Of a stretch of DNA of 40,736 nucleotides, positions 1,308-37,662 are shown one piece after another. Location: contig JYFJ02003509.1 of assembly GCA_000934665.2 (NCBI GenBank), positions 1-40,736 of the forward strand, read 5' to 3'. Origin of the DNA: Catajapyx aquilonaris (taxonomy: Eukaryota). The position numbers and the translations under genes are program-made. The notes under the pieces were generated by a model, which ran no database searches, was not told the origin of the DNA, and worked only from the letters and a program-made list of their open reading frames with translations. Each line of letters starts with the position of its first letter. Position 1 is the stretch's first letter.

Positions 1308-4300
1308 ATGGCCGCTCCTGCTTCTGCTGCTCCATCCTCCTCGTCCCGCTGTGGCAGCCTGGAGATGGACTCGTGCTCGTCCTCCTCCGAGCCCATGGTG
1401 AACAACGTCGGAGGGATGCACCACAACTGCTGCCCCTGCTCGGGGTCCTCCTCGCTCCCAAGCAGCTGCTGCCACACCAACTCGGTAGCCAGCTGCGCCA
1501 GTGCTGCCCAGAGCCCGCCCGCCTCCTCCACCAGCAAGCAGTGGGTCAGGCTCAACGTCGGAGGGACCTGCTTCCTCACCACAAAGACCACCCTCTGCAG
1601 GGACCCAAAGTCCTTCCTCTGCAGGATCTGCCAGGAGGACTCAGACCTCATTTCAGACAGGGTGAGACGCTCACCTCTACACTTTGCTTATAGGGGAACG
1701 AGGAGGAGGAACAAAGCCCTGTTTGGTGTAACACATGCAGAGCCAAGGGTGGGGGAGCTACTGGCACTGATGTCATGCTGCATACATGAGGCATTTTCTC
1801 CCATGTGTTATAGGCTGCCCACCCTAACTTGCCATTGATGTCATAGTTTTGCATACCAATTCCTAGTCAGAGTAAATCTGCCACATGGACTCCTGGAACC
1901 TCGCACTTTTCAAGTCTCCATGGAGATGCCCGAACAGTTTTCTTTCGTCGACACTGTTTACTCTTATTTTTGTGAGGGCATCTACATGGAAATTTGGAAA
2001 GTGAAACAATGACGTCAATGGCAAGTTAGAGTGGGCTGCCTATACAATCAAGTTTCAGTGCAAGTCATCAGTAAATGGTACGGAAAAATTCAATTATGAT
2101 GTTCCTCTGAGGGTGTTCAAGTAACTAACCACAGGGGGTGGCTGAGACGGAAACGTCTCGGCTTGCTGAGTAGAAGGTCCCGGGTTCGATCTCCACCCAG
2201 GAGTTCCCTTTCACCTGCATCAGGAGGGTCTCTGACCCATGACTTGGAGGTGTCTGGCAACTTAGCCTTCAACCCAAGTATTCCAACATTGCACCTGCAC
2301 CTGTGTCTCCTCCCCGAAACATCCCCATCCCTACCTCATTATCCTTTCCTCCTTGCACGGTGACTGAAGAAAATTAAGTAAAATGGATGGGAAAATATAT
2401 GGTGGTGTTCCACCCCCCTAAGAACCCTGGCCCTATCACGGAGTAATACAAAAAAAGAGAAAAAGTAACTAACCACTTTGTCAGGCTGGCAAAGCAACAA
2501 ACATGATTGGGGACTGCATTGATGTCAATGACCATTCTTAAATGTCAGGTCTAGTTTGTACTCACTTTCATGGCTCTCTTCTTGTGGAATATCACCTTCC
2601 ATATTATATTTGACTGATTCTGGCATGCCTGTATAACCCATGGGTGGCCGGCATGCTGCAATAACTGAGGTAGATTTCCATCATTTTTATCCTTGTCATT
2701 TTCTGGTGGGAATGCTTCTGGTACCCTTCTAAAATAATGTTATGCTGAAAAAATGGGTGAGTGTACAGGGCTGTGAGAATAAGCAGGATCTGTTTCACAG
2801 TGCATATGAGAGTGTGACCAATCCCATCATCAGCTTTGAGAGGGGAACCCTCTATTCCATCACAAAGGATTAAGACAAACTCCTTCAGTATTTCTCTTTG
2901 CTCAATTGTTCGCTGTTCGGAAAATGTGCCTTTGCGATATACGTGGATTTCTATTTTCAGTGAAAAAAAATATCAAGTTCAGAAAGGATAATGCAAGTTA
3001 AAACCTCTCCTTAGACCGGCACACCTTAGTTTGACCGGCATGCCGGTATAGCCACCAGATCACGCATTTCTAAAAACTGTTCGACCTCGACTACACCAGC
3101 ATGCTGCTTTAAGTGAGGTAATATGGTACATGTGCCACACCATAGGACTTGACATGTTGTTGTTGAAGTGTTTCCCTCAATGCATTTCACATATTGAGTA
3201 CATTGCTAAATTCAGTGGCTGCCGCAGCGAAATAATCTAGTAACAATAAAATAACAATAAGTAACCAATAGGAGACCTCAGCAGTGCTGACAGCTCTGAG
3301 TTTAGCAACGCACTCATTGTTAGTGAGAATATTGTTATCACAATAGTATCCAAGTTACCATGCAAAAAACTGAAACATCTTGATCTGTACCAAACACAGC
3401 GGTAACATGGAATAATATTTTATTTAATGATATGGCTTCCTGCACAGTGCTTCATTTGTAGTGTATTTCATCTGAGTAGTTTTAACAAAAATTTTAACAA
3501 ATGAGAAGATTGCAGTATGTAATAGTGTGTGTCTGTTCACGCAGCCATATCTCTCCACAAAATTCACTTCCGCTATTCCACTTCTGAAGTGTGGTAGATA
3601 CCAGCTACTTGTTGATTACTTGGGTGAACAGAAGTGCTTGTGACTAAAATCTATGTAGATAATATAAGACCTCCAGCAACTAATCATGGCCTCTTGGTCT
3701 CATGTTTGAATTCTGGAATCTTGATGTTCCATGATGTTGCCATGATGTTCTATGGTGCTGCCAGCATTATTCGCATTTAAATACTCAATGATGTGTGTTT
3801 CCTTCTTGACCTCAGACCTTAACAAACCTGTTCCTAGGTGGCCTTGGAAGTATTTCAAACTGCTGCATCATAAGCTACATGAATTCTGTCAAGTGGAGTG
3901 TGGAGGATAACCAAACCTACCATCCTGCAATACTAATTTCTCTCAGAGGACTGTCATTAATATAAGGGTGTAGAGGAAGTTTTCCTCTTGAGCCACAAAA
4001 GGTGCTAAAGTACTTGCCAAGATCAGGATGAAGCTGAGATTTATATTCAGATATGCCAGTAGGCTAGGCATTCCCCTCCCACCTCCCCCCAGAACTGTCC
4101 ATAATGTTGTTGGATGACAAATTCAGAGATTCTGCAGCAACAGGCATAAATTTGTCAAAAATTATGTTGACAGAAAATAAAACCTGGTGGCCTTTCTGAG
4201 CCAGTCACAATCGTGGCTCTAAACCAGAGTTTCCCAAACTGTGCTCCGCGAAGCTTTTCCAAGTGCTCCGCGAGGAGGTTGGGAAAAAAATGAATTCTTC

Positions 4301-7296
4301 AATAAGCTATACCAAGGCTATACCCATTCAAATCTCTCAGTAGCTTGTGTGACCTTGAACCCAATTTTTTTTTTGCCTGCGGGCTCTTTCGCCCCTCCCA
4401 TTCTAATTGACTAATTTGGTGCTCCCCCTCCCCCCTCCAACCCGGATTTTTTTTCTGCTTACGCGGCTCGATGATCTTGGTGCTCTGTCTCGAATATCTC
4501 TCCTGAAATGTGCTCCGCGACTCAAAAAGTTTGGGAACCTCTGCTCTAAACAATCTGGATGGGATGGTGGTGTGGTAGTTAGAGGCACAGCCTTCCACCT
4601 CTGAGATTCTGTGGTTGATTCCCAGGTCGGACAGGATACATTCTCATTTTGAAGACGTTTTGATGAGTTTTTTTTTCAGAGTATTTTATTCTTCTTCTTT
4701 TAAGTGTCGTTTAACCTCTCAATGGTGCAACAAAGATCCCGTAAAAGAGCCTCTGCAGGCATATCACAGGTTATCCAATCAGATATTAGTTGTGGTTTTG
4801 TACTGTCTGACCACTTGCAATGGAAATCTTATTTGTAAGGGTTATTTTATGGGTAGTTCTTTTCAGTTTTACTTTTAAGATTTTAAAAAAATTGCCCATC
4901 CCATTCAGAAGTAGCCTACACACATATGTGACCATGTTCTGGGATGAAGGGAGATCTCCATCATTGCTTTACCTGAATGCCACCTAGGCTGTGATAATTA
5001 TTATTACAGCCTGATATCGCCCTCAGTTATTGCAGTGGGTTGTGTTTAGGTAAGGCAGTCACTTGGATTCAAACATGGTCATATTGCACAACATATTAGA
5101 ACCTGTGTTGTGGATGTAATATTTCATCATTAATACGATATGTATATTCGTAGATTCACTTAGTTGTTCATTTAGTTCACTTTAATAAACAATTTAGCAA
5201 TGATTTACAAATTATTGATATTACAGGATGAGAGTGGTGCCTACCTGGTGGATCGTGATCCAACCTATTTTGGGCCAGTCCTCAACTATTTGCGGCATGG
5301 GAAGCTGGTAATCAACAAAGATCTGGCAGAAGAAGGTAGATCAGACTCAACAGAAACTGTGATTTTCTCTAATACACTACATTTGAGCAGGTGTGTTGGA
5401 GGAGGCCGAATTCTACAACATAACAGAATTAATTCGACTGGTTAAGCAGCGCATTGTTGAGCGAGACAGACGGCCCCGGGATGGGAAGAATCATGTTTAT
5501 CGGGTGATTCAGTGCCATGAAGATGAACTTACTCAAATGGTCTCAACCATGTCTGATGGGTGGAAATTTGAACAGGTATATGTTGCATTGGTATAGTGTA
5601 CAGTGCTGGACAAAATAGCCGTCGCTGAATGTTTTTTTCCGGCGGCGGAGGCGGCGGCGTTACCTGGCAACCCTGTCCGGCGGGCCAATTCAAACATCAG
5701 CCCATGGAGACTGCTTCCATTGTTGCCACTGTTTACAAATCGAACGAGTGACGCGGATGACCCATCGACGGGTCTCTTCTGCCTGCGCACTCACTCACTC
5801 GATTTGTAAACAGTGGCAACAATGGAAGCGCTCTTCATGGGCTGATGTTTGAATTGGCCCCTTGGATGGGGTTGCCAGGTAATGCCGCCGCCGCCGCCTC
5901 CGCCGGAAAAAAACATTCAGCTATTATATCCAGCACTGTACTATAACTCTCAAAAACATAGAGACATCTCTTATGTTTTTGAGCAATATAGTACATGATT
6001 AATAACTTGTCCTGTGACTTTGTGATCAAACCATTCATGACTGGAGATCACAAATGCAAGTCATATATTTCCAAAAAGCCTGTTTAGATCTGAACAATTC
6101 AGTCACATGGCATAATTTGTATTTTTCAAGAACTGATGTTTAGAGGACTATGTCTTGAATTGCACATTTTCCAGAAGAATTTTAAGTGACTCACTGCTGA
6201 GAAAAAAATTGCATTTTAAACTGGAAGTGGGCATTTCCACGCAAACACAGACATATTGTCCGTTTGTTACGCAGGTTTTGCAGACATGTACTGGCGTATT
6301 TTATTGTAACAATACACACACAATCATGGCATGATATGGATTAGTATGCATACTTAATCCATTTCATGCCATGGTGTATTGTTACAATAAAATACGCCCG
6401 TACATGTCTGCAAAACCTGCGTAATGAACAGACAGTATGTCTGTGTTTGCTTGGAAATGCCCAATTACCCATGAAGTTGTCTGGATATTTCTGCTACCCT
6501 TTAGATTGAATGCATGATTGACCTTGCTTGGCAGGATTTTCAATTTTTTAAAAATAATACAAAAATTAAAGGGTTGAGTGGGTTACATTGCATGATGTAG
6601 AACAAAAATAACATTTGCTTTCCGTGAACTAGGATTGATTCATGATGGCTCTTGATGTTTTCTTTCAGCTGATAAACATAGGATCTCAGTACAACTATGG
6701 GAATGAAGACCATGCGGAATTCCTTTGTGTGGTGTCACGCGAGTATGGTGCATCTGCTTGCGACTCAAAGGACAGAGAGAACGAGTCCAGCGACAGGGCA
6801 AAGGTACCTTCTTAGAGCAATACTACTCTGGCCTTGTTTCTGTTTGCTGCACTTTTGGTTTGGACCATGGTTTGACCTTATTTTGCTACAACCAAAAGAA
6901 GGGTGAAAAATGTACTAACCCTTACCTTGTCACTTTCCTGTCATGTACTCAACAAAATAATAGACCCTAGGTTTTTTTGTTCATTAATTTTACCCTAATT
7001 TTTGAAGATTATATTTCCCCCCTCCATTTGCTAACCTAATAAAAAGTGAGCTTGGAATGGACCTGTGTGTTAGTTTTGCATGGCTCCCATTTTTAATTTG
7101 TAATTTTGTGTGTAGATTTTACCTATCCCATTTGTTGTGGCTTGCCATGTTCTTATCACATAAGGCAACGGACTAATAAGAAATGAGAAGTATAGAATTT
7201 GTTAACAAACATGTGAAGTATTGATCATCACAATTTCTTCTCTACTTTTCTTGCTCTTTCTCGTAGGTTCTTCAGCAAAGAGGCTCCCGAATGTAA
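1308..7296 (+). CDS. KCTD5: BTB/POZ protein of the KCTD5/KCTD2/KCTD17 (insomniac) family, CUL3 adaptor, ~270 aa; exons 1308-1661, 5227-5335, 5391-5575, 6669-6803, 7267-7296
   Basis: Motifs [116 protein letters not shown] and C-terminal LQQRGSRM. All introns GT-AG and in phase (813 nt). Start codon uncertain: in-frame ATGs also at 1365, 1395 and 1416. Confidence 0.95.
2133..2462 (+). mobile_element. Full-length tRNA-derived SINE (~330 bp) in KCTD intron 1
   Basis: Pol III A box TGGCTGAGACGG (~2139-2150), B box GGTTCGATC (~2183), A-rich 3' tail, and an exact 14-bp target-site duplication AAGTAACTAACCAC at 2119-2132 and 2463-2476. Confidence 0.9.
4225..4543. mobile_element. hAT (Charlie-like) MITE, 319 bp
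   Basis: TIRs CAGAGTTTCCCAAACT / AGTTTGGGAACCTCTG; exact 8-bp TSD CTCTAAAC (4217-4224, 4544-4551); subterminal motif GTGCTCCGCGA present three times. Confidence 0.92.
5601..5938. mobile_element. Fold-back MITE with TA TSD (Tc1/mariner-type), 338 bp, in KCTD intron 3
   Basis: Ends TA|CAGTGCTGGA ... TCCAGCACTG|TA. Imperfect inverted arms of ~140 bp (e.g. TTGCCACTGTTTACAAATCGA / TCGATTTGTAAACAGTGGCAA) around a ~55-bp loop. Confidence 0.88.
6229..6462. mobile_element. Almost fully palindromic MITE (GGG...CCC ends, PIF/Harbinger-like), 234 bp, in KCTD intron 3
   Basis: GGGCATTTCCACGCAAACACAGACATA ... TATGTCTGTGTTTGCTTGGAAATGCCC; arms pair in to the central ATGCAT (~6346-6351). Flanks AGT/AAT are an imperfect TSD, so the superfamily is tentative. 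Confidence 0.8.
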
Positions 7297-8110
7297 AGCT
7301 GGCATTTTAGGCAGGGGGCATAAAAAAGGAGGGGCAGAAGAAGATTAATGAGTCACAAATAGAACCACACCAAGTGTTCTTTGACGGATACTCAGAGGAA
7401 GAGAAATATTAACAAACCATTAAAGAAAAAAAATAATAGTGAGCGGACTAGATGAGAGGTAAAGACAACTTAGGATTTATTTATACTGAAAATAATAATG
7501 AAACAACAAAAAAAACAGAAGCCTGGGCCTTATAAACAATTCACAGTAGTACAGTATTTGCATATTAACTGTATTGTGGCAGCAGGGAAGGAGATTAATA
7601 CCAGTAAGAAAACGAAGTGGCAGTTAACCAAGTAATTCTTTTGTACATAATGTCAATTTAGACGCCCACTTGGCAACAGCCTTTTATCAACTGCAAACCA
7701 CCATGTGCATAAAGACAGAACAAGAGATAAAAAGCAAACCTAGTTGTTGTGACAAAAGTGTCTTTTACACTTAACTCTTAGCTGTTTTATGTGCTTTTTT
7801 TTCCTTTCCATTTTTAAAAAAAACACAGCAGCTAAGTGCTTTCCTTTGGAAGTCTGGGTTGTGGCTTTTTCCCAAGAGCTAAAGAAAGAAAGAAAGTAAG
7901 AAAAAGAAGAAACTGAACTGCAAGGAAACAAAATGAATTTATTTATTTTCTTTGTCATGGGAGATGTTGAGGGGGGTATGAACAACAAAATAATGACAAA
8001 CCATTTTGAATGTGACCTTTTTCTCTACTTTTGTTATAAATTTTGTAACGCATTAAAAGAAAGGGGCACAATAAGTCTCATTGGATCCTTCTCATTTTCC
8101 CACTCACTCT

Positions 8111-9476
8111 TCACGAGGCAGCAACTTGTTTGAGTGGTCCTTCCAGGTAGGTGGCAAGAGCTTGTGCCTTGGCCTTCAACATGCCGAAGCAGACTGGCTC
8201 CTTGGCATAAAGACACAAAAGAAGATTGGCCACACGAGTTATGGCAACTTTTCCTTCCTGTAAAATGAACGAAACATTTCAGGTAAGTTAAGTTAGCACT
8301 GACAAAGTTTGGATTGATACTTCACATCTCAAGTCATACATTTCTTTTGAATTTGCTTCATGTAGTTAATGTTACATACATTGATGTTTACAACAGTTCT
8401 GATCTATGGCAGCTTTTATCATCCATTATTACAGAGAACCTAGGTTTAAAGCATCATTGAGGAGCCACTGTCCCAAAAATTTGAACTCTAATTTGTATTC
8501 TTATCACCTTCAAACATGCCAGTGCAGGTCCTATATTTTTTTTGATGCTCCAAAAGAAGACTAATTTTTCAAGTTTGTAATTGGTGGGACCACATGGACA
8601 TTACGTGTAGCCCATAAAGTCATAGACAATGATGGAGCATGGCATGGCTATGGATTGGTAGGTGTTTGTTGCCTCCTACAGCCACATTTGGTGTCAGATG
8701 TGACTATCCAAAGGGGAGGATCTTTCCTTGCTTTTCCTAGGTTGTGAAGCTCCAACATGGCTAGATCAATTTGAAATGGGTGGCAGATGTGGGCATTGGT
8801 GAGCATGTCTATGCAGTATGTCATTAGGACTGGCTCATAGTCTAAAATAATGGTGAGAGGTCACTCCAAAGCTGGACATCCTAAATGCCCTCAAAGCATC
8901 TTGATTCCTTGCAGAAGTTCACCTGCTTCCAATACTTTACCATGCTTTGATTGTTGATTGGTGACAGATGAAGTCACAAGTAGCACAAGAACTTTACACA
9001 GCAATAATGACAGCAGTGCTTATGCTGGTGTTAAAACCAGTGCAACGCCTGCTTATATATGACAAGACCGAATATTAAAGCCAGTCAAATTAACACAGTT
9101 GGCTGTCGTGGAAGCACATTATTGGTCAGCATTGCGGAAATGAGGTGTGTGCGCCTGATAATCCATCCCAAACCCTGCCTCAACTTACCATGCACTCTAA
9201 AAGGACAAAGTTGAGCTTGTCCTCATTGAAGGCATTCCTCCCGTTCTTCTCATACGCAGCCCAGATGTTGCTGGCAATTGCAGCAGGAACCCTGGCATCC
9301 TTGTCTCCATACCCGCTGTAGGCCAGCAGCGACCCTTCGTGGTTCAGCAGCCTGATAACAAGATCCATGTTAGGGTCACATTTGACATTTGAATTGCATG
9401 TAACTCACAGCGTGTTGTGTATTCCTCCAGTGTTGGCCTGGCTCAGCACCTGTGTCAAAGCCTTGGGTTTCAGCAT
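8111..9476 (-). CDS. LAMTOR2: Ragulator subunit LAMTOR2 (p14, roadblock domain), 125 aa; exons 9476-9409, 9351-9189, 8257-8111
   Basis: [18 protein letters not shown]...[38 protein letters not shown]...[48 protein letters not shown]. In-phase GT-AG introns, 378 nt. Minus-strand AATAAA at 7942-7947. Confidence 0.97.
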
Positions 9477-9479
9477 CCT

Positions 9480-10950
9480 TGCAGACTGTGGTGGTGATTC
9501 CTCCTGATGTCACAATCTGGCACGTGATGACTCCCCCCTGTGCCTTTCCACAGATCCCAACAGATGTCTCCTCCGTCCTTCCTCACCTCCTCACCGGCCC
9601 CCTACCTTCCCCTCCCCTCCGCTAGATGTCCCTCCCATCTGAAGCCCCGCCTCCAGCCCTACCCGATCAGCCAATCAGCTCCCACCTTCCCGAATGACAG
9701 TGTCGCCAATCAATCAAAAGAAAAACCCGGTCTCATTTGCCCAATCCCATCCCAACGCAATTATAACTCCCCCCCTCCCCCTCTCCTCCCCTCCACACAG
9801 CTTTCCCTCCCCACCAATCTTTGCATGGAAATCACAGCCAAGGGGGAGGGGGGGAGGATGGGTGATGCAGGAGGGAGGGGAGGGGAGGGGGGGGGGGTGC
9901 AATTTTTTTGCCCATATTCCAACCACCCCCCCCAAAAAAAGCCTTTATCCCCCTAGTTAGAAGTCCTTTCTCTCTTTCGAGCCCGTTTTTCAATCCGGCG
10001 GTGACGAGGTGAATCACTCTTCTTTTTTACACATATCTAACTCTGGAATATTCCAACCCCTCCAAAAAAATAATTGGAGTGGGGGAGGATCGGTGTGCAA
10101 AAAATAAGTGCGATTTTTTTGGAGGGGGAGGGTGATTTGTGGGGGATGACCGCAAAATGTGACGTGTTGTGACGTGCACTCTTTTGTGTCCGCAATATTA
10201 ATTCCACCCTGTTTTAGCCCCATCTACTTTCAAGCCTGGTAGTTTCATCGCCCCCCACCTTCCCCAGCCACCCTGCTGCTTCCATCCCCCCCCCCCCTCC
10301 CGCCGCCTTCATTTCTTTATTGATTTCAATTGGAATTCCGCATCCCGGATACATGTCATTTAGCCGCATTTTCTCTTCATGCAGGGGGTACGTTTTGTGT
10401 GTTCTGATTATGACGTCGCGGAGACATTTTTTTAAAAAGGCTTCTAACCAACCCTGCTCGGAACTCCCCCCCCCCCTCCATCGCCGCTTCCCCCCTCTTT
10501 CCCCCCCTCTATCTTTTCATTCTGGCAATTCATTCGCCAGGAGACATTAAAAGGAATAATCCGTTTTACAAGATGGCTTGAAGCGGCAGCCATTGTTGCA
10601 CCGAGGGTCAGAACCCCGGGAAAGGGAAAAAAGAGTGAGCGAGGATATTGCGGTGGGGCAAGGCAGGCAGACAGCAGCTAGAGGAGCGAGAGTGGCGCTG
10701 TGGTGCGGCTTGTTTTTGTTGTTTTGTTGCCCTGCCGCGACCTTACCCGGCAGATAGGAGATAGCGTGGGTTTACTAAACAAAGGCAGAGGGAGACGCGT
10801 ACTATCTCCGCAGCCTTGCTCCCTCTTTCTCGTGCTGGTGGCGTTGCCTTCTCTCTCTTTTTTTTGTACCGTTATTGGGGGCTTATTTACGGTTGTGTGT
10901 GTGATGAGGGTGCAGTACGAGTTATGTATGCGGCAGGGGTGATTTTCTCG
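9480..10950. promoter_or_regulatory. Divergent promoter and 5'UTR region for LAMTOR2 and the Cys-repeat gene
   Basis: CpG-rich, with long poly-C and poly-G tracts (e.g. 9841-9898), TGACGT elements (~10159-10175, ~10411) and a YY1/Pho-like CAAGATGGC (~10569). The plus-strand gene has an acceptor at 11862 upstream of its ATG, implying a non-coding first exon here. TSS not localised. Confidence 0.55.
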
Positions 10951-11450
10951 GGTGCAGTGCGTGCTGTTGGCAGGGTGTCAAGAGAGTGGGTCGGTGAACT
11001 GGGATGCAATTTCACACTGCGTTATTGTTAATGGTGCATGGAAGGGATGCATTGGGAAGCAGTTGATGTTAACATTTAAGTAGGTTTATTGACATGTGTC
11101 GGGCCTACAAGGTTTTTACAGTACTATATGAAAAGCTGGCCAAAGGTCACTGCGGTTGTCTCAGACCTGCATGAAATGCAAATAATTTTTTTAAAGCGAT
11201 GAAATCTGTAGTGGGAGTTGCAGCATACCAAAAAACTTCTTGTATGAATGAAGTATTCATTACATGTGATAAAAATGTACATATAATGTCATCTTGGACA
11301 AAAACAATTTTTTGTGTGTGGGACAAGGTCTATTATGGGGTCATTACATGCAGGTTTCATTGCACAATATTTTCAGCCTTAAAGTCATGCTGATATCACA
11401 CTGATCAACAATGTAACTAACAAATGCATGTGATGCTAGTGCACTTCTAA

Positions 11451-11777
11451 GGCCGGGTCCCACCGGCTCCCGGAACATTTGTCTGGCCGACAAATAGCCG
11501 GGTTACTTTGCTATTGTTGTCAACCAACTAAAGGCCAAAACACAAAAGATTTTGCGGCAGCGTCAAGCGGCAAACGCCTGCCCCGCCAATTATTATTAAT
11601 TATTGGCAATAATAAATATAAATAATAAATATGCTGCAACACGCACGTTTGCTGCGCGTTTTTTTTTTTTTTTTGCGAAATGGCCTTTACTGTCAACATG
11701 CTCTCAACAATGAACAACAAAGTAACCCGGCTCTTTGTCGACAAGACAAAATTTCCGGGAGCCGGTCCAACCCGTCT
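11451..11777. mobile_element. PIF/Harbinger-type MITE with TAA TSD, 327 bp
   Basis: TAA|GGCCGGGTCCCACCGGCTCCCGGAA...GCCGGGTTACTTTG and CAAAGTAACCCGGC...TTCCGGGAGCCGGTCCAACCCGTCT|TAA; imperfect TIRs of ~60 bp. Confidence 0.82.
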
Positions 11778-11899
11778 TAATGTTGAATACATTACATTAC
11801 ATCAGAAAAGTTACAAATTGGCAAGTAGTACTGAGTCTCATGGTGATTTCTATTTTTGACAGGTGATGGGGGGTTGTAGGCACTGAGGAAGGAGTTACA

Positions 11900-14405
11900 A
11901 TGGAGGTGGCAACAATGTCACCACCAACAACGGTTGCGGAGGTGGCAGTTCCCTTGTCTCTGGTGCCATCTGGAACAACGCTGACTTTGGTCACCAAACC
12001 AAAGGAATCTCTGGCACCACTTGTGATAAAGCCGGAGGTGACCCCAGTTGTGATCAAACCAGATGTGGCATCATTGTTGGAGGTCAAATTGGACAGTCCT
12101 GTGGAGACTCAAGTTGAGCCTCCAGTGGAGGCACCAACTGTGGAAACTTCTGCATTGAAGACTCCTACTTCAGAAGCTTCGGTATTGGAGACCTCAACGT
12201 CTGAGACTTCCGCGACTCCAAGTACAAGTGGCTCCAACCCAACTCCAGTTTCACCAACTGCCACAACCCCAACCGTCCGCCGTCGCCGCCGCAGGCACTC
12301 AGCCAACACGTATTGGACCAAACGGGCTCGTAAGAAGATATTGTCTCCAACGTCAACTACACCACCTGCATCACTCCCTGATTGTTGCTGCAACAATGGT
12401 TGCCTTGACAAAGTTGGTGCTGAGGACCGTGCTCGATTGTTCCGTACCTTCTGGGGGCTTGGAAGCCTTGGAAAGCAGCGAGCGTATTTATCAGAGCGTG
12501 TCAAAGCTGCAGGGTCACCAGGCGGCCCCACACTGGAGTATCACCTGGATGGTACAAAGCCAGGTGACACTGTAGTGGTGTGCCGACCATTTTTTAGGTC
12601 GACATTGGCTGCTTCCAACAGGATGTTAAATCGAGTAGTCTCGGCCAAGACGGAGGAGGTAGCACCAACACCTAAATCTCCTGAACCATTCCGATGCCCA
12701 TATTCGTTAAGGTCGCCAGAAAAGAAGAAAGAACCGGAGCGCAATGGTGTTGCCAATGGTAGTTACTATTATGAGGAGGAACTTGACGAGCTGGATGAGT
12801 TGAGTGACACTGACAGTGATGCTGGTATGGTTGACGTCACACCATCTGCAGCATCTCTTCTTCCAAATTTTTCTTGGCCCAAAGAGCTCTCAGTAATGGT
12901 GCAAAATCCGAGTCCATTGTTGTCAGATCCAGCTTCACACCATCTGCAACCTGTGAGCTGCAAGTGTTGGCATGGCTGCAGTTCTAAAATTACAGAACAG
13001 CAGCGGCAGAAAATTTTCCGCCACTTCTGGAGTTTAGATCCAACAGCCCAGCAGGACTACCTCAATCGCCAGATTTTTGAGATGCGCAAGAAGAAGACTC
13101 AGCTACGTGGCGGGAAGCCAAGCAGGCGTAAATATTCTTGTGAATATTATTTGGAGGCAGATGGCCACAGATACCAGGTGTGTCTGAACTACTTCGTCAA
13201 GACCCTGGACGTCACCATCAACATGGTGCGAGTCATACTCAAGAACCGGAGAGTACGTGACTCGCAACCACAGCAGGGAAAATTTGTAGTAGCTGTTGTC
13301 AAGTCTCCAGATGTTGCTGCTCATGAAGAGGAATCAGACGACTATGTTGATGTTGCTGAGAAACTGGAAATCATCTTAACCGTTGGCTCCGAGGTGTTGA
13401 AGCTTAAGGATGAAGAGCAGTATCCTCAGCTCCACCATCAGCTTGACATGCCACCATCTGTTCCAGCACCATACATGCATCACCTTCCACTGTCATTGAC
13501 ACTTCCTCAGATGCTTGATGCAGTGCCGCCTGGCACCAGGTCAGCCCGACCTCCCCGTCGCCTCGAGCCAGTTGAGTGCCGCTGTTGGAACCAGTGCAAC
13601 ATGAAGATAAGTGAGAAGCATCGGCAGCATATTTTCAACCATTTCTGGCAACTAGGTTCCTACAGTCTCCAGAGGCAGTTTCTACTACAACATGTGGTTG
13701 ACAAGAAGAAGAGGTGCATCCGATCGCCAAAAGGGACCGATTCCAGACGGAAGTATACCTGCGAGTATTACTTGGATGCAGGTGGACATAGAGTGCAGGT
13801 GAGCACGTCAACCATGAGTGCAACAGGCTTATATTTTCAGTTGCAGCCGACTTAATTGTTACATCTTTCAGGTGTGCCAGCGCTTCTTCATCAAAACCCT
13901 GGGCATATCTGGTTCTCTGGTTCATCTGACTCTCCGCAAGAAACGTACCTTTGGTATCGAGATGGCGGGAGTGGACAGGAGGGGTCTGTGGAGGAGCCTT
14001 CAGACCGAAGGTGCCGGTGGACGCCCATCTGCCTCTCCACCTCCACCACAAGCACCCACTCCCCTCCCTGCACACCAAATGCAGCCAACCCATCACCTCC
14101 CCCTCTCATTCCACCATCCCCAGCTCTATCATTCATCTGACCCACTGTTGGACACTATCACCAAGAACCCCGAATTGGAGATCACTGTCCGCAATGGATC
14201 AGCGTCTAGCAATGGTGGCATGGGTAGGGCGCCCATGTATCAGCCTACCCAACTCCTCTCCTCCCACCCTTCCAATGCTCCTTCATCTGTCTTTTACTGC
14301 CTCCCAGACATTGTGGTAAGGAAAAGGGAGATGCCTGCTCCAGGGATGCAGAATGGGACTGGACAAAGCGCAAGTTTCTTGCCTCAGCCTGGTCTTAGTG
14401 TCTGA
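11900..14405 (+). CDS. Uncharacterised ~810-aa, probably nuclear, protein with three Cys-rich modules resembling a transposase N-terminal domain; exons 11900-13798 and 13872-14405
   Basis: Acceptor at 11862 and an in-frame TGA at 11864 fix ATG 11900. A 73-nt GT-AG intron joins HRVQ|VCQRFF, completing repeat 3. Three modules CxCxxxC..K(I/V)....R..(I/L)F..FW.L....Q..(Y/F)L ... EY(Y/H)L ... VC..(F/Y)F..TL at ~12383-12640, ~12959-13240 and ~13577-13935. Basic NLS-like RRRRRRHSANTYWTKRARKK. Confidence 0.85.
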
Positions 14406-17400
14406 GGAGGGACCCACTGGTGGTATTTCTTAAGAGGAGTGGACAGGGTGAGTCAGGAGAAAATGCAGGCATATTGCCACCCTCACACAATATTGAGAAG
14501 TGAGTAATGAGTGAAGGAAATTGAAAGCTTACCCCCCTTGTCTACATCCGGCATGGTAGAAGGCAAGAGGTCATGATTGCAGTTTCATGTATGATTAACT
14601 ATTGTGATGCAATCCAGTTCTGAGTTCAGTCACTGGCTCCTTGTCTTGTGGTGATACTTCATTTTCACTTCTACTCTTGCACATGTCATTAATGGCCTGA
14701 TGTATGCTGGTTGGTTGTAGTCCATCTGACAGATTGTCCCAACTTTCGAGGACATGGTTTGCTTGGAAGAATCTCATACCAGAGAGGTGGTAAATGCCAG
14801 ATGGTAAATGATATTACTGTGTCCCCATTCCACTCCTCTCAATATTGCGTTTTGCGTCAACACTCGTTCTCAGTGCTTGTGTGCCTGGCGTCAAATGCCG
14901 AAGAGACGGGAGCCATTCCCCCATTTTAAAAATTTCTTTCCACACGAGGAAAAAAAATGAAACAGTATTGTCTCCAAGGCGCCCTCATATCAGGTGGCTC
15001 GGGAAAAGTACCATTTTACAAACCAATGTCCCCTCCTGTTAATTGTTCCCAGTCAACCAACCCCTCCCTGCCCCCCAATCCCCCCCTTGCCTCCATGACA
15101 AACAGCAAAAAAGAGTTGTGAAGCAAGTTATGTGAGTGAGAGTGATAGGGAAATCTAGTTAGGTAGATAATATTCTTAAGGTGTCATTTTTGAATTCCCC
15201 TTTCCCCCGCCCCTTACAATGGAGACAGGGCCTAGGGAAAAAAAATCATGGTTGAACTTGTGAGTGAATGCAATCATGTTTCATGGTGTTTAGGTCTAGG
15301 TTTCTTTTCCCTCTTGCCCCCACCCTCTCACACGTGACTTTGATGCATGTATGAATCAGGTGGAAGTTGTTTTTGTGTGGGGACAAAACTCAAAAGACTG
15401 ACCACAGTTGGCAACTGATTGAAAATGAATGGTTATAGATAGTTAAGTAAATGCTAGCCCTTCTGACAGCTCTATGCAAAGTCTCCGCTTCCATTGGGAA
15501 ATGAGGAAACTTTAGTTTTTCTCCAATTTACACCTTCCATTCGCTTGTTGAAATTCCAGTGCGTGTTTTTTTTACAAGACTGTGGTGCTGAGCAGGTTGT
15601 GTATTTGTTCTGGCAACTACTACTTGTATGTCTTCATCACTTTGATTTATCTTTCTAGCAATGGTAACTCAGGACAGTCAGGATTCCAAATGGTAGGGGC
15701 AACATACACAGAGAGACTTGAAACAGTCTGCAATAAAACACACTCACACACACACCCACACACACTATGCGCAGCTGATGGGCAACTTAAACAATTGTTG
15801 ATACTTAAAGCTGCATCTTCCCCTACTTAAAAAGATAACGACTGATTTTTTGAAATGTTAGTGATAATAGCAATGCCAGCTTGGATGCAAGATATTTTTG
15901 TTGTGGGAATACATGCTGAGCTTGACGCAGCAATGGCCCTGTCTCTGGATCCCCTCAGCCTGCGTTAATGGCCCCCGCAGTGGGTTTTATCACAACTTGT
16001 TATGCAGTACTTAGGGATGACAAAAAGTAGGGATGGTTGGGCAAAGGGGAGGTATTGTTTTTTAAACAGAACAAAGGTTTCAAGTGTGGTGTAGAAGGAC
16101 TGGATGCCTTCTGCGATAATGTTGGCAAGCCATACTTAAAACAGCCATGTAAAAAAAATCTCACTCAGTATTTTGTAGCGTTTGAAGGGAAAAAGAAGTG
16201 ACCCTCCCCTTCTTCCCACACCCAGATAATTTATGTCACAGTCCAATATGTGAATGAAGAATGATGAGTGACGCGGCAGGTCTCCTTTGCATTTTAGCCT
16301 CTTGGCCGGTTTTAATTTTTTTTAAACTTCGGACCCCTGCTATATTTATTATTAGCACATTGCGCAGTGATCTATTGTATTTATTGCAAGGGAGGCCTGC
16401 ACCGTTGGGTTCCTATGCAACCAAAGGAGGAACGATTTTTACAGGTCACAAGACCACAACTCGAGTTTGGATGGCTGAAGCATGCAGCCCCAATGACTAA
16501 TTATTTTCTATTCCGTCTCCCCCCCTCCCATCAGAACAGTATTAATATTAATCGAATCAGTCCTTTGCTTTGTGATGAGTTTTATGTTGCTTTTATAACT
16601 TTTATTATATTATTTATCTTTTATTTGTAGGTTTGTACTTTTATTTCGATTTAGGAAATGCATTTTGTTGGGAGTAAAACTAGTGAGAAGGAAAAGTGGA
16701 TTTTTTTAAAAACCCAAGAGCCAGGCAGTATTTTTTGATGAGTTCTCTGCAAAAGCAAAAGGTGAGATGTGACCAAGGTTGGTTGTGGTGATTACTTAGA
16801 TGCATTTTTTTGAGGAAGGGGGAGGGTGTAAGTGACAAAATGAATTGCAGCTAGCACAATAAGCTTCCTCCCCCTTTTTCATTTTGACCAACTCTCTCCA
16901 GTGCACCCTCAATAATTGTTGCAACTATGCTACAGATTATTTATTGCTGAAACTGAACATGGTTTTCTCCATTATGTGCTGTCAATAGTGGAATATTGTA
17001 ATCCTCTCCCTTCCACCCCCCACCGCATCCCCTGTTAAATGTGAATCATGAAAAAGAAGTGAGATGCACGCGAGATAATCTGCAGGGACAAACTTGATTC
17101 TCGTGCACTGAAAGTAAGTTTTTCAAATTCCCTTCCCTCGACAGTAGTGGCAACTCTGCAAGAATGAACTCGTGTTCGACCTCGAGAGGCCTTAATGGAT
17201 CTTATTTTAAGTTATTGTCGCCCATTTCCAGTGACCTGGATTGTGGTGCCCAATAAGAAAATGAGCAAACCCTTCCCATTCAACCATGCTTCTTGACAAA
17301 AAAAAAAAAAAAAGCTGAAAATGTAATTGGAAAATAAAATCCCTGTAGTTGTAAGTGTCCCATGTAGCGCAATAAAGAGAAAAAGGCACACTGAGAGGTT

Positions 17401-17586
17401 AAGAGAAAAACTTATGTCCACTTATTTTCTTTCTTCGTGTCTTCCAATTTATTAATAATTTGTAGGCAATACTCTCGGCGACCATTGTTATGATGTTGGG
17501 GCAGCAGCCACACAAAAAGTCCAGGAAATGCGTCTCCACTCAGGCTTAGCCTCAGCAGAGAGAGAAACTGGGAACCAGCAGGCAGA

Positions 17587-20500
17587 CTAATCGTCCAACA
17601 CGGTTTCTTCTTCCTTGACAAAAAATTCCACCACTTCCTCATCCAGGTTGGTCTGGTCCACATCCACATCGTCTGTGTCTACATCTGGAAATGTAAAGTT
17701 TTGTGTGGGTATCATCAAGTACACTCTGCAAGGAAGTTTACAAAGGTTGGACTTTTGTGCGAGGTGAGGACTGAAACTTACTGCTCCTGAGCTCAAGTCT
17801 CCTCTTCTTCTGTGCCTGATACTGGTCTGCCTTCTTCTGCCGATATTCCTTAAACTCTGCTGTGAGCCGCCGCCTCTTCTCGGCAAGCTCCTTGTCTGCC
17901 TTGAACATTCCTTCTCTGTCCTTCAATTCAAATTTCGCAGAATATTTCTTCATGTTGCGCTTGATTTCTTTCAGGTTGTTGGGACCCAGCAGATTTGGAG
18001 GGCGTGGTCTCCACAACAATTGACAGAAGCGTTCCATGTTGTATCGTTTCAAGATTCGCCCCTGGAACGTCCACAGCCAGTATGCATTGTCCACCTGTGG
18101 GATAAATGTAACAAATCATCTCGGCTGAAATTTCCACGACAATTTCTCAATTCTGTTACACATGGTACAATGGTGGGGGGTCTAACATGGGCAAACTCTA
18201 CCTAGGGTTTCATCTACCATGGGACAGAAGGGAGGCAACAGTATACAACTACACATTTCCTAAGCTTCAAATATGCAGTTTCCATACCTTGTGACCCCAC
18301 CAGGACACTCCTGTGGCCACATATCTTCCTGTAGGATCCCACTCAACGTCAGTAGCCATGAAATGCTCAGTGGTGTTCATGATGGTGAAGTCGGAGGTAT
18401 CGACAAACTCCAAAACACCATTCATGTTTCTAAGTCCGGCCAATACGATGAACTGTCCTTGAGGGGCCCAGAACAGATGGTTGCATTGCTTGCGCTCATA
18501 TTTCTTAAGCATGACAGGGGCCTGTCCAGTCTTCACGGCATAAAAGCTTACACAGATGTTAGGGATGTCCCCATGAATAACAGCAAACTTTGACCCCACA
18601 GGCTCCCATGCAAATGCCTGCACAGTCTCTTTAATCTCCACGCTGTCAACAGGGACCTGCTTCTCCCGCATGTGGAATATCTCAAAGTTGTGATGGATGC
18701 CCTGTTAAAATAATACACATTAACATAATTTCCAGAGCATGTAACATGCATCAAGATTGCAGAGTAATTGATTGAGAATCGACTGCAGTGCCTGGCAATC
18801 CTGAACGAAATGACTAGGGGTGGAATTTTCGTCTTCTTACTAGTTACTGCTAACCTGAGCAGTACCTGCTGTCCAACAAGAATTGTCGCAGCGGCCTGGG
18901 CAGCGCACGAACTACAGTCTCTCGTGTCCCTGTGCTCGTAGATTGTAGTTCGTGCGCTGCCGCTGCGACAATTCTTGTTGGACTGATAGTACCAATGCAC
19001 TACACTGGCACTAACAAGTAAGTTAGAAGTAACTAGTAGTACGACGAAAATTCCACCCAAGGTGACAAAGGCAACAGTGCTAACAGTGCTCAATTTCTTA
19101 GATAAATTATAGGGAGCTCAGTACTGATGCAATCTTTCCAAAATCACGACAATGAACTTGAAAAAAAACATCGCATCACATCAATCAAATATGAAATGAC
19201 GCCTGTCCAATCATGTAGAAGTGGTCATACTTACAGTAAACTTGAGCTCATTTTTCTCCTTCTTGGCTTTGCTGTATCGATCCACTTTTACACAGAGGAA
19301 GTCACCCGACTTCTGCCAGTGCATCTTGCAGTCGATCACGTTGAACAAATTCTTTGCTCGGATTTCTATTCGGCTGGAAAGTAATTTCTACATTAATGCC
19401 AATCAGCCAACTACTGGTGTAATAAAATCTCCATATTTATCATGTCTGTTCAGAAAGGGCTAAGCTGTTTCGTCAGACTTGAACAATCCGATAAGTCTCA
19501 AGTCAAAATTCATCACAACAGACATTTTTCTGTGTCGACTTCTCTCAAGTGCAGAACTCATTAGTACAGAATCATAGATGATGTCGTCAGTAGAAAGGTA
19601 CCAATATTTCAAGGCTATCACTTTTCGCATTTCTTCACAGAGGGATGTAATTTTTAGTCATCTGGTTTTAGCTATTATTAAATTTACTAAGGTTATTAGT
19701 TATTTCAATTGTTATCTAAGTGCACCTATTGGAATTCATTGACTTCGCAGCCTGTTGAGAGAATTGCCTCTCAGCTGCAACCAAAATTACCATATCCGTT
19801 AAGAGCAAACGAAGAATTTGAACACAATTTTGGCCATTACATGCCAACAACAGCAGCAGGTTTTCTTTGCTGACCACTCCCAAAATTTTAAAGCAAGCAC
19901 AAATTGGCACTTGCCCAATTATAGTAAAGGGGTTCCTGGAGGAAACAACCCATAACTTCTTTCCCTACCCTCTTTGGAACTGGGACCTCAATAGTGCACC
20001 ACTATATTTCCACTCTAGTAACAAATTATTAATACTTCTACACAATTGATTTTTTTCTTTCACACCTTGGAATCTCAAGCAGCACGACTCTGGAAGGCAC
20101 ATCTTTCTCCTCTGCCACCCAGTAGGCCATCTGATTATCTGTGGGACTCCAGCTGAAATCCCGGATCCCAGGCACCTTAATGCTCTTCTTGTCCAGCAAA
20201 CCAAATGATGGTGTTTCATACACGCTCAATAAATCCTGACCCATACGTGCAAAGTAATGGTCATCATGAGACCACTTAAATATAGGCCAGGTGGACTGGA
20301 CTGCATCTGCATGGAACATGCGTTTCATTGAGCCATTGCGAATCTCCCATACAATGATGGGCTGGGTGACTCCTCCTTCAATTCCAGTGCCAGCACTTCC
20401 ATGGTGGTGGTGGTGATGCTCCTGCATTGGGCTGAACATAACCACATATTTTTCAAGCGGACTGAAGTCAATAAATTGGACCCCTTGTTGCCCAAACTTG

Positions 20501-23500
20501 ACAATTTGTTTGAATTGCTCCCCACCCCATAGTGCAATTCCTTTAGAGTGGAAAGTGGCTATGTAAGTTCCTAGTGGCGACCAACGAACATAAGTTTCTG
20601 TCCATCGATTTCGCTCCTCTACCAATTCCCGCTCTGGGACAGTGTTGAGGTATATCTGCAGCTTTTCACCACCTTCATTCAGGATGCAGTACTGGTCACA
20701 TGCATCTGGTTCAAGCAAGTAGTACCACATGTTCCCTTGATCCTTGTATGGTTGCGGTTTCGGGGGAATCCATTCATCAGGTGTGTCCTCATACCTGCAA
20801 GTTAACAGATACTTTATCCAACAATGTCCATATGGTAGTAACTATGGGTGGAATTTTAGTCCCACTGCTAGTTACTGCTAACTTACCCAGAGCCATGGCC
20901 AACACTGGTACTACTTTTACTATTGCTACGTTAGCAGTAACTAGCAGTGGGACGAAAATTCTTCGCTATACAGTATTTACAGCATTGGTAATGAATTTCA
21001 GAAAACAGCTTAATGGGGCTGGCTCAGGCACTAACCAGTAGGGCGGCGCTAGTGGGCGAAAGGTTATAGTTCAGTATTGGAGATGAAGCTCGAACCTTGC
21101 TGAGACAGTGCGAAGCAAAGGTCTGAACCAGCAAAATGCCACAGTACTGTTGTGTACCGAGTTGCCGATGCAACATTTCCGGCCATCAATTTCCCAAAAA
21201 CCCATCGCTTTGGAAACAGTGGCGAGTTGCCATCAAACGCGTGGATTCACGAACTGGAAATCTTTGAGATCAGGTTGTTCATGATGTCGTCTGCCATTTG
21301 CACTTCAAGCCTGAGGACTACAGAATTTGCGAGTTTGCGGTCGATGTGACCCTTTTGGTTTTGGTCTAGTCACGCCAAAATTTTCGACACAGTTTTTTCC
21401 CCCCCTCTCCTTATGTTCGCCCCTGCACCCTCTCCTTGCCCCTCTCCTCCCCTTCCGGGGGAGGAGAGGTTGCTGGGGCGAATATACCATGCTATGGGCA
21501 AGGTGGGGCAGGCACCGGGCCGAGACGGAGAATGGGTGGGCTTGGCCGCTGTGAGAGCGAGGCATAGCGGGCTCAAGGAGGAGTGGGGTCCACTCGCAGG
21601 GTTACCTCTGAAAATTCATTGCGGCCAATCTAGGGGTCGCCCTGGTTTGACAGTGCCCCCGTTGTCGAGACGAGATTCCGAGGATGCCGTCGAGGTCCAC
21701 ATCGGCCATAAATAACCACGGTTTATTTTACTGGAGAATTTAATAGCGAATATGAGGGTAAAAAGTGGGACATATAGCCTCTGGGAGGGTGAGAATCTGG
21801 CGGGCTGTAACCCAACGGGTCGAGAGTGCAGGGTTGTCTCTGAAAATTCATTCCGGCCAAACTGGGGGTCGCACGGGTGTGACAGTCCCCATGTCGTCGA
21901 GGGGAGATTTCAACGTTTCCGTCGAAGGCCATATCGGCCATAAATAACAACGGGTTAATTTACGGGGGAATTTTATTCTTTTCTTCTTCCCCTCATATTC
22001 GATATTAAATTCTCAAGTAAAATAACCGCCCGGTATTTACGGCTTATATGGACATTGACGGAATCCTCGGAATCTCCTCTCGACGATGGGGGCACTGTCA
22101 CACCAGGGCGACTCCCAGTTTGGCCGGAATGAATTTTTAGAGGCAACCCTGCACTCTCGCCCGTGCATGCGGCCGTATATAGAGAGAAAAACAATAACCT
22201 TCCGCACACTAATGCCACCCGTCGGCCGAACTTTCGGTGAGCCAGCCCCATTACACAATAATTAAATTTTCGTTACGACTGTAAAAGTCAAGTGTACCTC
22301 ACTTTCAGGGTACCGCTACCATTAACCAATATTGATGGTTCTCTCAGATACAAGCAAGAATAGAAGCAAGAACCTACTTTTCAAAGTCAGTGAATAAATT
22401 GACACTGAAGATGTGGTGTTTGTCCAACTTATATCCATGAGTTGTCTTGACAGCCTCCAACGCATTGGCTGCACTGCTGTACTCAAGGAAAATATACCTG
22501 TAATGAAATATGAGTATTAGCATCTTGTGTAGCTTTAACTCAGCCATACAACAATCCTGCTAATGCATCCACTCAGAAAGGGCTAAGCTTTTTCGTCAGG
22601 AGATCCGACATGTCTCAATCACATTACTCATCACAATGGACACATTCTGCCCTAGATTCAAGGTTCAAGTCATGATTGCTTGGCATACATACAGAAAAAA
22701 AAGAAATCAGCCGAGCTTATAAGGCGTTACATGAAAAATTTCACATTGCTGAGGATTGCCTTCCTTTCAGAAATATCAACCCGTCAGCCAATTTTAAAAA
22801 TAACGACAAATGGCTCATCCATCAAAATATTTGTTCCATCAACACTAACCCTTTCGTTTTCTTGTCTTCCGTAACAGGGTAGTCCTCATTGATGATGTTG
22901 CCAAACTTGGAGAAGACCTTGTGGATGGTGTTCCTCAGCTTCTCCTGTCTGTCTGGACCAACCTCTGGCACACCATCCACAACAATGACTGCCTCAACAC
23001 CATCAGTCTCTTTTGGCTTCTGTTTCATAAAGTCTGTCAAGAGCTCTGGAAAAAAAGGTTAGTATAACAGTAACAGCACAATGAATTGACGGTCCATATG
23101 TAGAGGAACCTTTCTATAGATATGGACAAATGAACATGCTGAAGGTGTCAAGCTTGTGTTGCAAGGAGTAGGCCATCACGTCACTGCCATATTAAGTTAT
23201 CAACAATTGCATTTGCAATGGCTCGTTAGCACCCCTGGATCAAACAGTAGCCAAAGTCATGTGACCCCCCCAAAAATTTCACCTACATCTACACCTTTTT
23301 AATGTTTTTGATAGCAAAATAATCCGCTTATAAGACCTGGATAAAAGAAGCCATAAGTCTTGGCAAACAGAATAAAACTGCTGACAGTGAAAATTTATCA
23401 CGAATTTACTCACAAATTATTACTGCAGTGCAAGTTACACAGGAATACCTTGTTAATAGGGCATGTTTGGTTCCAGACAACTGCCACAGGCTTTTTTTGC

Positions 23501-37100: not shown

Positions 37101-37662
37101 TACAAAAGAAGACATCCGTGTACTGGAATACCTTGAAGATCTCAAGTACTACTACAAGTATGGGTATGGTGTAGAACATAACACACGTATGGGATGTCCA
37201 CTGGTCAAAGACATGATGACCCGCTTCCGAAAGATACGATCAGGCGAAGAGCGAGGCCCATACGGTGTCTTCTACTTTAGCCACTCTGCTCTGATCCAAC
37301 TCTTCCTGACAACTTTGGGAGTTGGCAAAGACAGTGTGCCATTGAGATATGACAACATGGACAAGGATCGCAAGTGGAGGACGAGTTTCATGTCTCCGTT
37401 TGCCTCCAACGCGGCTGCTGTCCTTCTCAACTGCTCCTCAGAGTTCAAGGTGCAGTTCTACCTCCAGGAGGAGACAATGCAAGATGTGTGTCATATGGGG
37501 CTCTGCACATGGGACCAGATGGAAGCAAAGTTTGGGCAGATGGAACAAGAGTGTGATCTCTATCACCTATGTGACCCAGACAGTGGAGCCAATGTGGTTT
37601 CTGGTGTGTCTGGACTCGTCCTGGCAGCTGCACTTTCTGTCACAAGATGGATGGCGATGTAA
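34130..37662 (+). CDS. MINPP1: MINPP1-family (Mipp1-like) histidine phosphatase paralog B with intact RHGxRxP, ~467 aa; exons 34130-34304, 34366-34500, 35998-36299, 36371-36518, 37019-37662
   Basis: Signal peptide MHRLFLLALALWAVQVSNA; FGTKTAY, CEPFQFWFVSRHGTRYP, GNLCRRD, RTEKSAKAFVNGLF, SAWCAAF, EDLKYYYKYGYG, YFSHSA, RKWRTSFMSPFASN; GPI-like tail DSGANVVSGVSGLVLAAALSV. In-phase GT-AG introns (1404 nt). Confidence 0.95.

Follow-up and report, generated by a model that had tools for sequence, protein, structure and literature searches.

Organization of the window gene

Here, we analyzed a stretch of 40,736 nucleotides (nt) from Catajapyx aquilonaris (contig JYFJ02003509.1 of assembly GCA_000934665.2, positions 1 to 40,736 of the forward strand), which as a whole is hereafter called the window. 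Between its genes for LAMTOR2 and eIF3b lies a protein-coding gene, referred to as the window gene, whose product of 810 amino acids (aa) is encoded by two exons and carries three copies of a cysteine-rich module resembling the front part of transposase-like proteins. Taming of transposase DNA-binding domains gave animals the THAP, BED, CENP-B-like and paired-type regulators. The features of the window gene, with the evidence for each in brackets, are as follows:

11900, plus strand: start codon ATG (in-frame TGA upstream at 11864-11866)
11900-13798, plus strand: coding exon 1, aa 1-633 (open frame, translation)
12278-12337, plus strand: basic stretch RRRRRRHSANTYWTKRARKK, isoelectric point (pI) 12 (sequence)
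12365-12664, plus strand: module 1, aa 156-255 (hmmsearch envelope, alignment)
12941-13264, plus strand: module 2, aa 348-455, with all family-conserved residues present (hmmsearch envelope, alignment)
13559-13798, plus strand: module 3, part encoded by exon 1, aa 554-633, with ...GGHRVQ as its last residues (alignment, profile)
13799-13871, plus strand: intron of 73 nt, GT..AG, phase 0, within module 3 (sequence)
13872-14405, plus strand: coding exon 2, including the stop codon TGA at 14403-14405
13872-13967, plus strand: module 3, second part, aa 634-665 (the exon 2 frame corresponds to profile positions 258-298)
13974-13985, plus strand: DRRG motif, the D.RG that comes after the module in relatives, with consensus D.RGKH (sequence, family consensus)

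Exon 1 encodes, in this order, a Thr/Pro/Val-rich acidic N-terminus, the basic stretch, module 1, a linker, module 2, a second linker and 80 aa of module 3, and exon 2 continues past module 3 into a Pro/Ser/Gln/His-rich tail of ~145 aa. When the two exons are joined (...VQ followed by VCQRFFIKTLGIS), module 3 (aa 554-665 as a whole) becomes complete, with no insertion or deletion relative to module 2.

The module bounds were set by a profile built from the three repeats. The modules are ~100 aa long and similar to each other, with BLASTP E-values of 6e-10 (modules 1 and 2), 1e-14 (1 and 3) and 1e-36 (2 and 3). All three have in common CxCxxxC, ..F..FW.L..., Q..(Y/F)L, EY.L and VC..FF..TL; the columns that are invariant in all three include the C, C and C of CxCxxxC, FW, L, Q, EY and L, and the four cysteines as well as the FW, VC, FF and TL positions are retained in each copy. 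Module 1 is the most diverged one: it has kept the four cysteines and FW, and the SRR..Y loop is missing. In the module tree, modules 2 and 3 are mutual nearest neighbours and module 1 is located on a long branch.

The modules are basic (pI 9.0-10.1) and the linkers acidic (pI 4.3-5.0), and 16 of the 18 cysteines of the product sit inside modules. The basic stretch RRRRRRHSANTYWTKRARKK looks like a nuclear localisation signal. Thus far, the sequence agrees with a preliminary description of this DNA, which had claimed three cysteine-rich modules, a DRRG following the third, acidic linkers and a basic stretch of nuclear localisation type.

Relationship to DUF7869 transposase-like proteins

At E ≤ 10, Pfam offered no family for the product or for any single module, including PF25273 and zinc-finger or helix-turn-helix families, and THAP, BED, FLYWCH and HTH_Psq were listed for neither the product nor the single modules. 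Exon 1 retrieved nothing from a protein word index restricted to similar lengths, which was probably swamped by low-complexity words. On the other hand, a phmmer search with exon 1 against 1.84 billion representative proteins yielded 961 matches at E ≤ 1e-3, 55 of which were at E ≤ 1e-10.

These relatives point to one family. The domain DUF7869 (PF25273) follows the module on its C-terminal side in 11 of the 48 relatives scanned and in 19 of the 24 long matches of the module profile, and in five full-length relatives it is the sole Pfam listing at E ≤ 10. Animal transposase-like proteins with this domain (e.g. P0086, P0105 and P0069; named examples come from Rhodnius prolixus and Ignelater luminosus) share with the window gene a basic W..N.RK, the Cys cluster, ..IF..FW.L...Q..F.., SRR..Y.L, VCK.FF..TL.IS and D.RG. 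The resemblance of the module plus DxRG to the N-terminus of a DUF7869-containing family, proposed in the preliminary description, is thus substantiated.

The window gene differs from the DUF7869 proteins in having three modules instead of one and in having neither the SHY/PKKD.C..C middle region nor the RNase H-like part. A full-length profile of 22 relatives (714 positions) was searched against the six-frame translation of the 40.7-kilobase (kb) window. It matched the exon 1 frame at an E-value of 2.7e-75 through positions 109-298 only, three times, and additionally the start of exon 2. Within the window the matches were confined to the window gene, and no second copy of the module was present elsewhere. 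Profile positions 300-714, which contain SHY, PKKD.C..C and the acidic core, had no match in any frame of the whole window, and the window gene scored 0 for the middle region as well as for the DUF7869/RNase H-like catalytic part, in agreement with the earlier claim that SHY, CxxC and the catalytic region are missing. Module 1 is matched from position 109 onwards, i.e. from before the Cys cluster, which implies homology of the basic stretch to W..N.RK..R in the relatives.

The family had been called transposase-like in the preliminary description, and structure modelling of the relative P0105 is consistent with this name. In its AlphaFold2 model (mean predicted local distance difference test score, pLDDT, 79.1), the core (residues 289-496) aligned with Mos1 at a Z-score of 10.4 (root-mean-square deviation 3.1, 164 residues aligned), with Metnase at 10.3, with retroviral integrases at 8-10 (9.4-10.1 for SIV, PFV and HIV) and with Sleeping Beauty at 8.0. 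Foldseek found the same kinds of proteins, weakly (E-values 3e-3 to 3e-2). As judged from this model, the catalytic part of the parent family is a DDE transposase/integrase of RNase H-like fold. Residues 206-287 of P0105, located after the module and D.RG, aligned with a chain of a nucleosome-bound RFX5 complex (Z 6.0, 66 residues); this region, which is missing from the window gene, may form a second small DNA-binding-like domain.

Two other relatives should be mentioned. The shrimp protein P0330 was considered as a crustacean orthologue and rejected, as it is a truncated transposase with a single module. P0073, a protein of 1074 aa with the module and a weak DUF7869 match, is deposited under a bacterial metagenome-assembled genome (Sedimenticola sp.) on a 6.5-kb contig, which looks like a case of animal DNA wrongly grouped with bacterial sequence.

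Predicted fold of the module and a candidate zinc site

The AlphaFold2 model of module 2, based on an alignment of 41 sequences, had a pLDDT of 89.7 and a predicted template modelling score of 0.78. The predicted chain starts with a Cys knuckle at the N-terminus and two helices, continues with a strand, the basic loop ..SRRKY.. and a beta-hairpin, and closes, past the fourth cysteine, with a helix-turn-helix-like pair; these elements recur in the independent full-length model of P0105. The four cysteines vary little or not at all among the 41 module sequences and are invariant in the 22 full-length relatives, which suggests one structural zinc site per module.

The preliminary description had named Foldseek as a check for a zinc site. 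In Foldseek searches with the module model, no match to the PDB was found at E ≤ 1e-3, and none at all to BFVD. In the VIA wide structure search with the module model, the best Z-score was 4.6, to type VII secretion chaperones, and the helix-turn-helix proteins KorB, ParB, TrpR and ArdK reached only 2.6-3.3, which is chance level. The module profile had just a chance match among PDB sequences (E 1.1), and comparison with the Atlas clusters returned unnamed clusters and no named one. Based on these searches, the module appears to have no convincing relative among solved structures, and such searches do not prove a new fold.

These results leave room for a different role of the module. In other families, some truncated transposases function as repressors, e.g. 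the KP repressor of the P element. In a domesticated host gene, the module might similarly bind RNA or protein, or assemble or oligomerise, e.g. as a decoy titrating the parent transposase. Such a role would fit the lack of a significant match to a solved DNA-binding fold and of any Pfam family or named Atlas cluster. However, the module is placed where DDE transposases usually have their end-binding domain, it is strongly basic (pI 9-10), its model ends in a helix-turn-helix-like pair, and two lepidopteran proteins combine it with ZAD, a domain that insect zinc-finger DNA-binding proteins carry at their N-terminus. We therefore regard a role other than DNA binding as improbable.

Neighbouring genes and repeats at the locus

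The window gene is flanked by two housekeeping genes:

9183-9404, minus strand: LAMTOR2 exon, divergent, ~2.3 kb upstream of the window gene (Robl_LC7, 3e-09; solved LAMTOR2 chains, 2e-24; spliced run X5 contig)
18270-18704, minus strand: eIF3b exon, of a convergent gene ~3 kb downstream (Pfam PF08662, eIF2A-type propeller, 1.6e-37; run X5)

The head-to-head arrangement with LAMTOR2, noticed in the preliminary description, is thus confirmed. The closest named relatives of the eIF3b gene are branchiopod crustacean eIF3b proteins (up to 81% identity), which marks the window as arthropod-like. C-rich direct repeats of 37 nt occur at 10233-10487, between LAMTOR2 and the window gene, and this interval may be a shared promoter region.

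Sequencing contigs of two runs were placed on positions 4000-23700: run X1, which is DNA, and run X5, whose kind is unrecorded. Run X5 behaves as RNA-derived, since its contigs join LAMTOR2 and eIF3b exons (five CT..AC joints for the latter) over GT..AG introns that are not skipped in the DNA run. Contigs of this run also cover parts of the window gene, e.g. 12929-13557. A single DNA contig of 7183 nt extends unbroken over 11705-18887, from the window gene into eIF3b; elsewhere in the window, repeats break the DNA contigs and raise the depth. The unbroken contig is consistent with unique sequence at the locus and is not a copy count.

No inverted repeats bracketing the window gene were detected at 10000-16500, where only short pairs of 14-27 nt that look like chance occurrences were present; this supports the earlier claim that no terminal inverted repeats flank it. 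Together with the intron and the housekeeping neighbours, this lack of flanking repeats distinguishes the window gene from an autonomous DUF7869 element. A miniature inverted-repeat transposable element (MITE)-like sequence was found at 11454-11774, with 62-nt inverted arms (11454-11515 and 11713-11774, 84% complementary), ending 126 nt upstream of the ATG. It is high-copy, with a DNA word depth of ~1445 (bin 11227-11883) versus ~28 in the flanking unique sequence.

The inverted-repeat search covered 10000-16500 only, and the ends of a larger, non-canonical element could be located beyond it. The window gene would then have an accessory or regulatory role in an element that is still mobile or was so until recently. 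This seems very unlikely considering that housekeeping genes are located ~2.3 kb and 3 kb on either side, that one DNA contig is continuous into eIF3b and that the window contains no second copy of the module.

Several other features were observed in the window. Its initial 2 kb are GC-rich (0.55). Exon matches to BTB_2 (the potassium-channel tetramerisation-type BTB domain) are located at 1038-1835 and 5176-5442 on the plus strand, and in this region run X5 joins 5333 to 5389 over a 55-nt GT..AG intron. Exons of His_Phos_2 (acid-phosphatase-like) are present at 29872-30471, 35943-36404 and 36997-37659, also on the plus strand, and look like two tandem genes. DNA word depths of ~18900 (5314-5970), ~8900 (18454-19110) and ~4800 (20425-21081), versus ~30, mark high-copy repeats; two of the three are within eIF3b introns, and many loose ends and odd joints are associated with them.

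Multi-module proteins in other animals

Among the 150 best relatives of the window gene, 58 carry 2-8 modules, although this ranking favours multi-module proteins because the query itself has three modules. The catalytic region is present in six of these 58, partial in one and absent from 51. Those without it resemble the window gene in having tandem modules, long low-complexity linkers and no DUF7869. All named ones are annotated as "uncharacterized", and they come from the gastropods Aplysia, Physella and Elysia, the bivalve Mercenaria, the sea urchin S. purpuratus, the sabethine mosquitoes Topomyia, Sabethes and Malaya, and the beetles Diabrotica and Dendroctonus. The heterobranch gastropod genes have 4-5 modules and the sabethine mosquito proteins 7-8. 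Representative proteins are:

Gastropods: Aplysia LOC101856214 and LOC101854718; Physella LOC131955823; Elysia GFR64323.1 and KAK3727349.1
Others: S. purpuratus LOC100893552 (three-module); mosquito LOC131689897, LOC128742300 and LOC131436562

The tree built from 278 modules groups those of several gastropod proteins by their place in the array (first with first, second with second, etc.), and Aplysia LOC101856214 and Physella LOC131955823 are collinear, with 41% identity over 1130 aa, linkers included. This position-wise pairing and collinearity imply that the arrays are older than the species split, as expected for host genes. In addition, an N-terminal ZAD (zf-AD, PF07776) precedes the modules in Phthorimaea operculella KAI5635822.1 (P0024) and Leptosia nina CAK1548721.1 (P0047), which are 30% identical across the ZAD region.

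The multi-module proteins of gastropods, insects and the sea urchin are not orthologues of the window gene, whose modules 2 and 3 cluster together rather than with theirs. Moreover, in most of them the repeated unit is longer and includes the region past D.RG (profile positions 300-420), which is entirely missing from the window gene. As far as the compared sequences indicate, the window gene is an independent and the most reduced case, since unlike most others it retains nothing past D.RG.

We also noticed four proteins (P0015, P0018, P0037 and P0063) that are single open reading frames in which a DUF7869-type catalytic region comes after three N-terminal modules. Their existence implies that multiplication of the module also occurs inside transposases. 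Accordingly, the array of the window gene may have been inherited from a multi-module transposase, in which case the triplication may predate the capture.

It is possible, as a tentative proposal with the odds rather against it, that the ~100-aa module of this metazoan DDE transposon family has a zinc-stapled, nucleic-acid-binding fold that is undescribed so far, and that hosts have repeatedly made tandem-array proteins from it.

Host gene or transposon remnant

At the locus itself, we lean modestly towards the view that the window gene is a host gene, present once, that arose from a DUF7869-type DDE transposase, whose N-terminal module persists in three diverged copies after loss of everything past D.RG. 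Domestication is favoured on account of the open frame with its intron, the lack of transposon ends and of a catalytic remnant, the housekeeping neighbours and the constraint on the protein. Regarding the last point, comparison of modules 2 and 3 revealed saturation of silent sites (proportion of synonymous differences, pS, 0.735) with a proportion of nonsynonymous differences (pN) of 0.391; the resulting ratio of nonsynonymous to synonymous rates (dN/dS) of ~0.19 rests on a saturated dS and could partly reflect selection inside the transposon. At the level of sequence comparison, the pair indicates an old duplication under protein-level constraint. Features of a domesticated gene that were seen here are the origin from a transposase domain, the loss of the catalytic part and the location between LAMTOR2 and eIF3b.

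A competing explanation is that the window gene is a transposon relic, i.e. the surviving front part of an old DUF7869-type element, possibly one with three modules, whose catalytic half and ends were lost. It would be incidentally transcribed and have no host function. Three-module open reading frames with a catalytic region are known, and therefore the array need not have arisen in a host gene; a high-copy MITE-like element is located next to the start codon; and the phmmer scan returned no orthologue of the window gene, the best relatives being 28-37% identical, through the modules only. On the other hand, the frame is open over 810 codons and interrupted by a spliceosomal-type intron, and modules 2 and 3 have kept the family-conserved residues in spite of their saturated silent sites. 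In addition, no catalytic remnant was found in any frame of the window, and neutral decay of a single insertion would not leave a perfectly open front with the rest erased. We consider a relic unlikely.

The host-gene reading also has to face several points that weigh against it, including the missing orthologue, the reservation about dN/dS and the chance-level structural comparisons described above. The intron that the preliminary description had placed in the third repeat is supported by its GT..AG ends and the register of module 3 only, and among the joints listed no run X5 contig bridges it. Upstream of the coding region, the sole visible trace of a candidate intron in the 5' untranslated region is an acceptor-like tttttgacag at 11853-11862; none of the run X5 contigs listed lies on 9913-11226. 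Module 1, which lacks the SRR..Y loop, may be degenerate. Among the relatives, P0006, P0016 and P0007 contain near-identical internal repeats and may represent tandem pieces of a transposon of recent origin, or artefactual fusions of gene models, rather than host genes. As for the domesticated capture proposed in the preliminary description, homology to a transposase front end, loss of the remainder, a non-mobile locus and constraint on modules 2 and 3 speak for it, and an orthologue in the phmmer scan is the part that did not materialize.

If the window gene is indeed a host gene, its product might work as follows. The basic stretch would bring the protein into the nucleus, where each basic module would fold around one zinc ion via its four invariant cysteines and offer DNA a helix-turn-helix-like helix pair and a beta-hairpin. 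Carried on flexible acidic and proline-rich linkers, the three modules could read three sub-sites, much as a transposase reads the repeats at the ends of its element, and the acidic linkers and the Pro/Gln/His-rich tail might serve as effector regions. The protein would then act on chromatin or transcription as a sequence-specific factor, and its targets might include relics of the parent transposon family.

Comparison with known systems

Tandem zinc-finger arrays of the KRAB-C2H2 and ZAD-C2H2 types provide a functional analogy to such a protein, as they also combine small Cys-dependent modules in a row with effector regions. However, the modules of the window gene are ~100 aa rather than 28 aa long, their acidic linkers span 90-100 aa and their predicted fold is different.

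Domesticated transposase DNA-binding domains include THAP, ZBED, CENP-B/pogo-derived, HTH-Psq, FLYWCH and FHY3/FAR1 (in part from PMC10027918). The window gene would share its route with THAP, ZBED and the others, in that the end-binding part at the front of a transposase was kept and the catalytic part was lost. Unlike them, its module matches no Pfam family and no convincing solved fold, and it forms a tandem array. The passages considered from a catalogue of transposon-derived transcription factors name no domesticated domain of this kind (PMC10027918), and a passage of a further source lists superfamilies only (bioRxiv 10.1101/2021.09.26.461848). A full-text literature search for 'DUF7869', with subscription journals outside its coverage, found no paper. 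Within the same coverage, the literature on Sola domestication, on ZAD combined with transposase-derived domains and on cysteine-rich helix-turn-helix transposase domains contained nothing on the module, nor did it provide a Sola motif for comparison.

Implications

The window gene would belong to a known class, that of domesticated transposase domains; it stands out by an unannotated module, its unexplained fold and the recurrent tandem arrays. The parent family is known to Pfam solely as a domain of unknown function and the module itself has no Pfam entry, yet tandem arrays of it are seen in three or more phyla, some of these arrays being conserved between species and some fused to ZAD. If our reading is true, the window gene would add one more source of host regulators derived from transposase DNA-binding domains. 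The module family would then lend itself directly to structure determination and the mapping of binding sites, and add a test case for the origins of modular DNA-binding arrays. On the more tentative proposal of an undescribed fold reused by hosts, the window gene, the lepidopteran ZAD fusions and the mosquito, gastropod and sea urchin arrays would be separate cases of reuse of the module, and besides C2H2 arrays there would be a second, transposon-born way to build modular DNA readers, perhaps aimed at the parent transposons.

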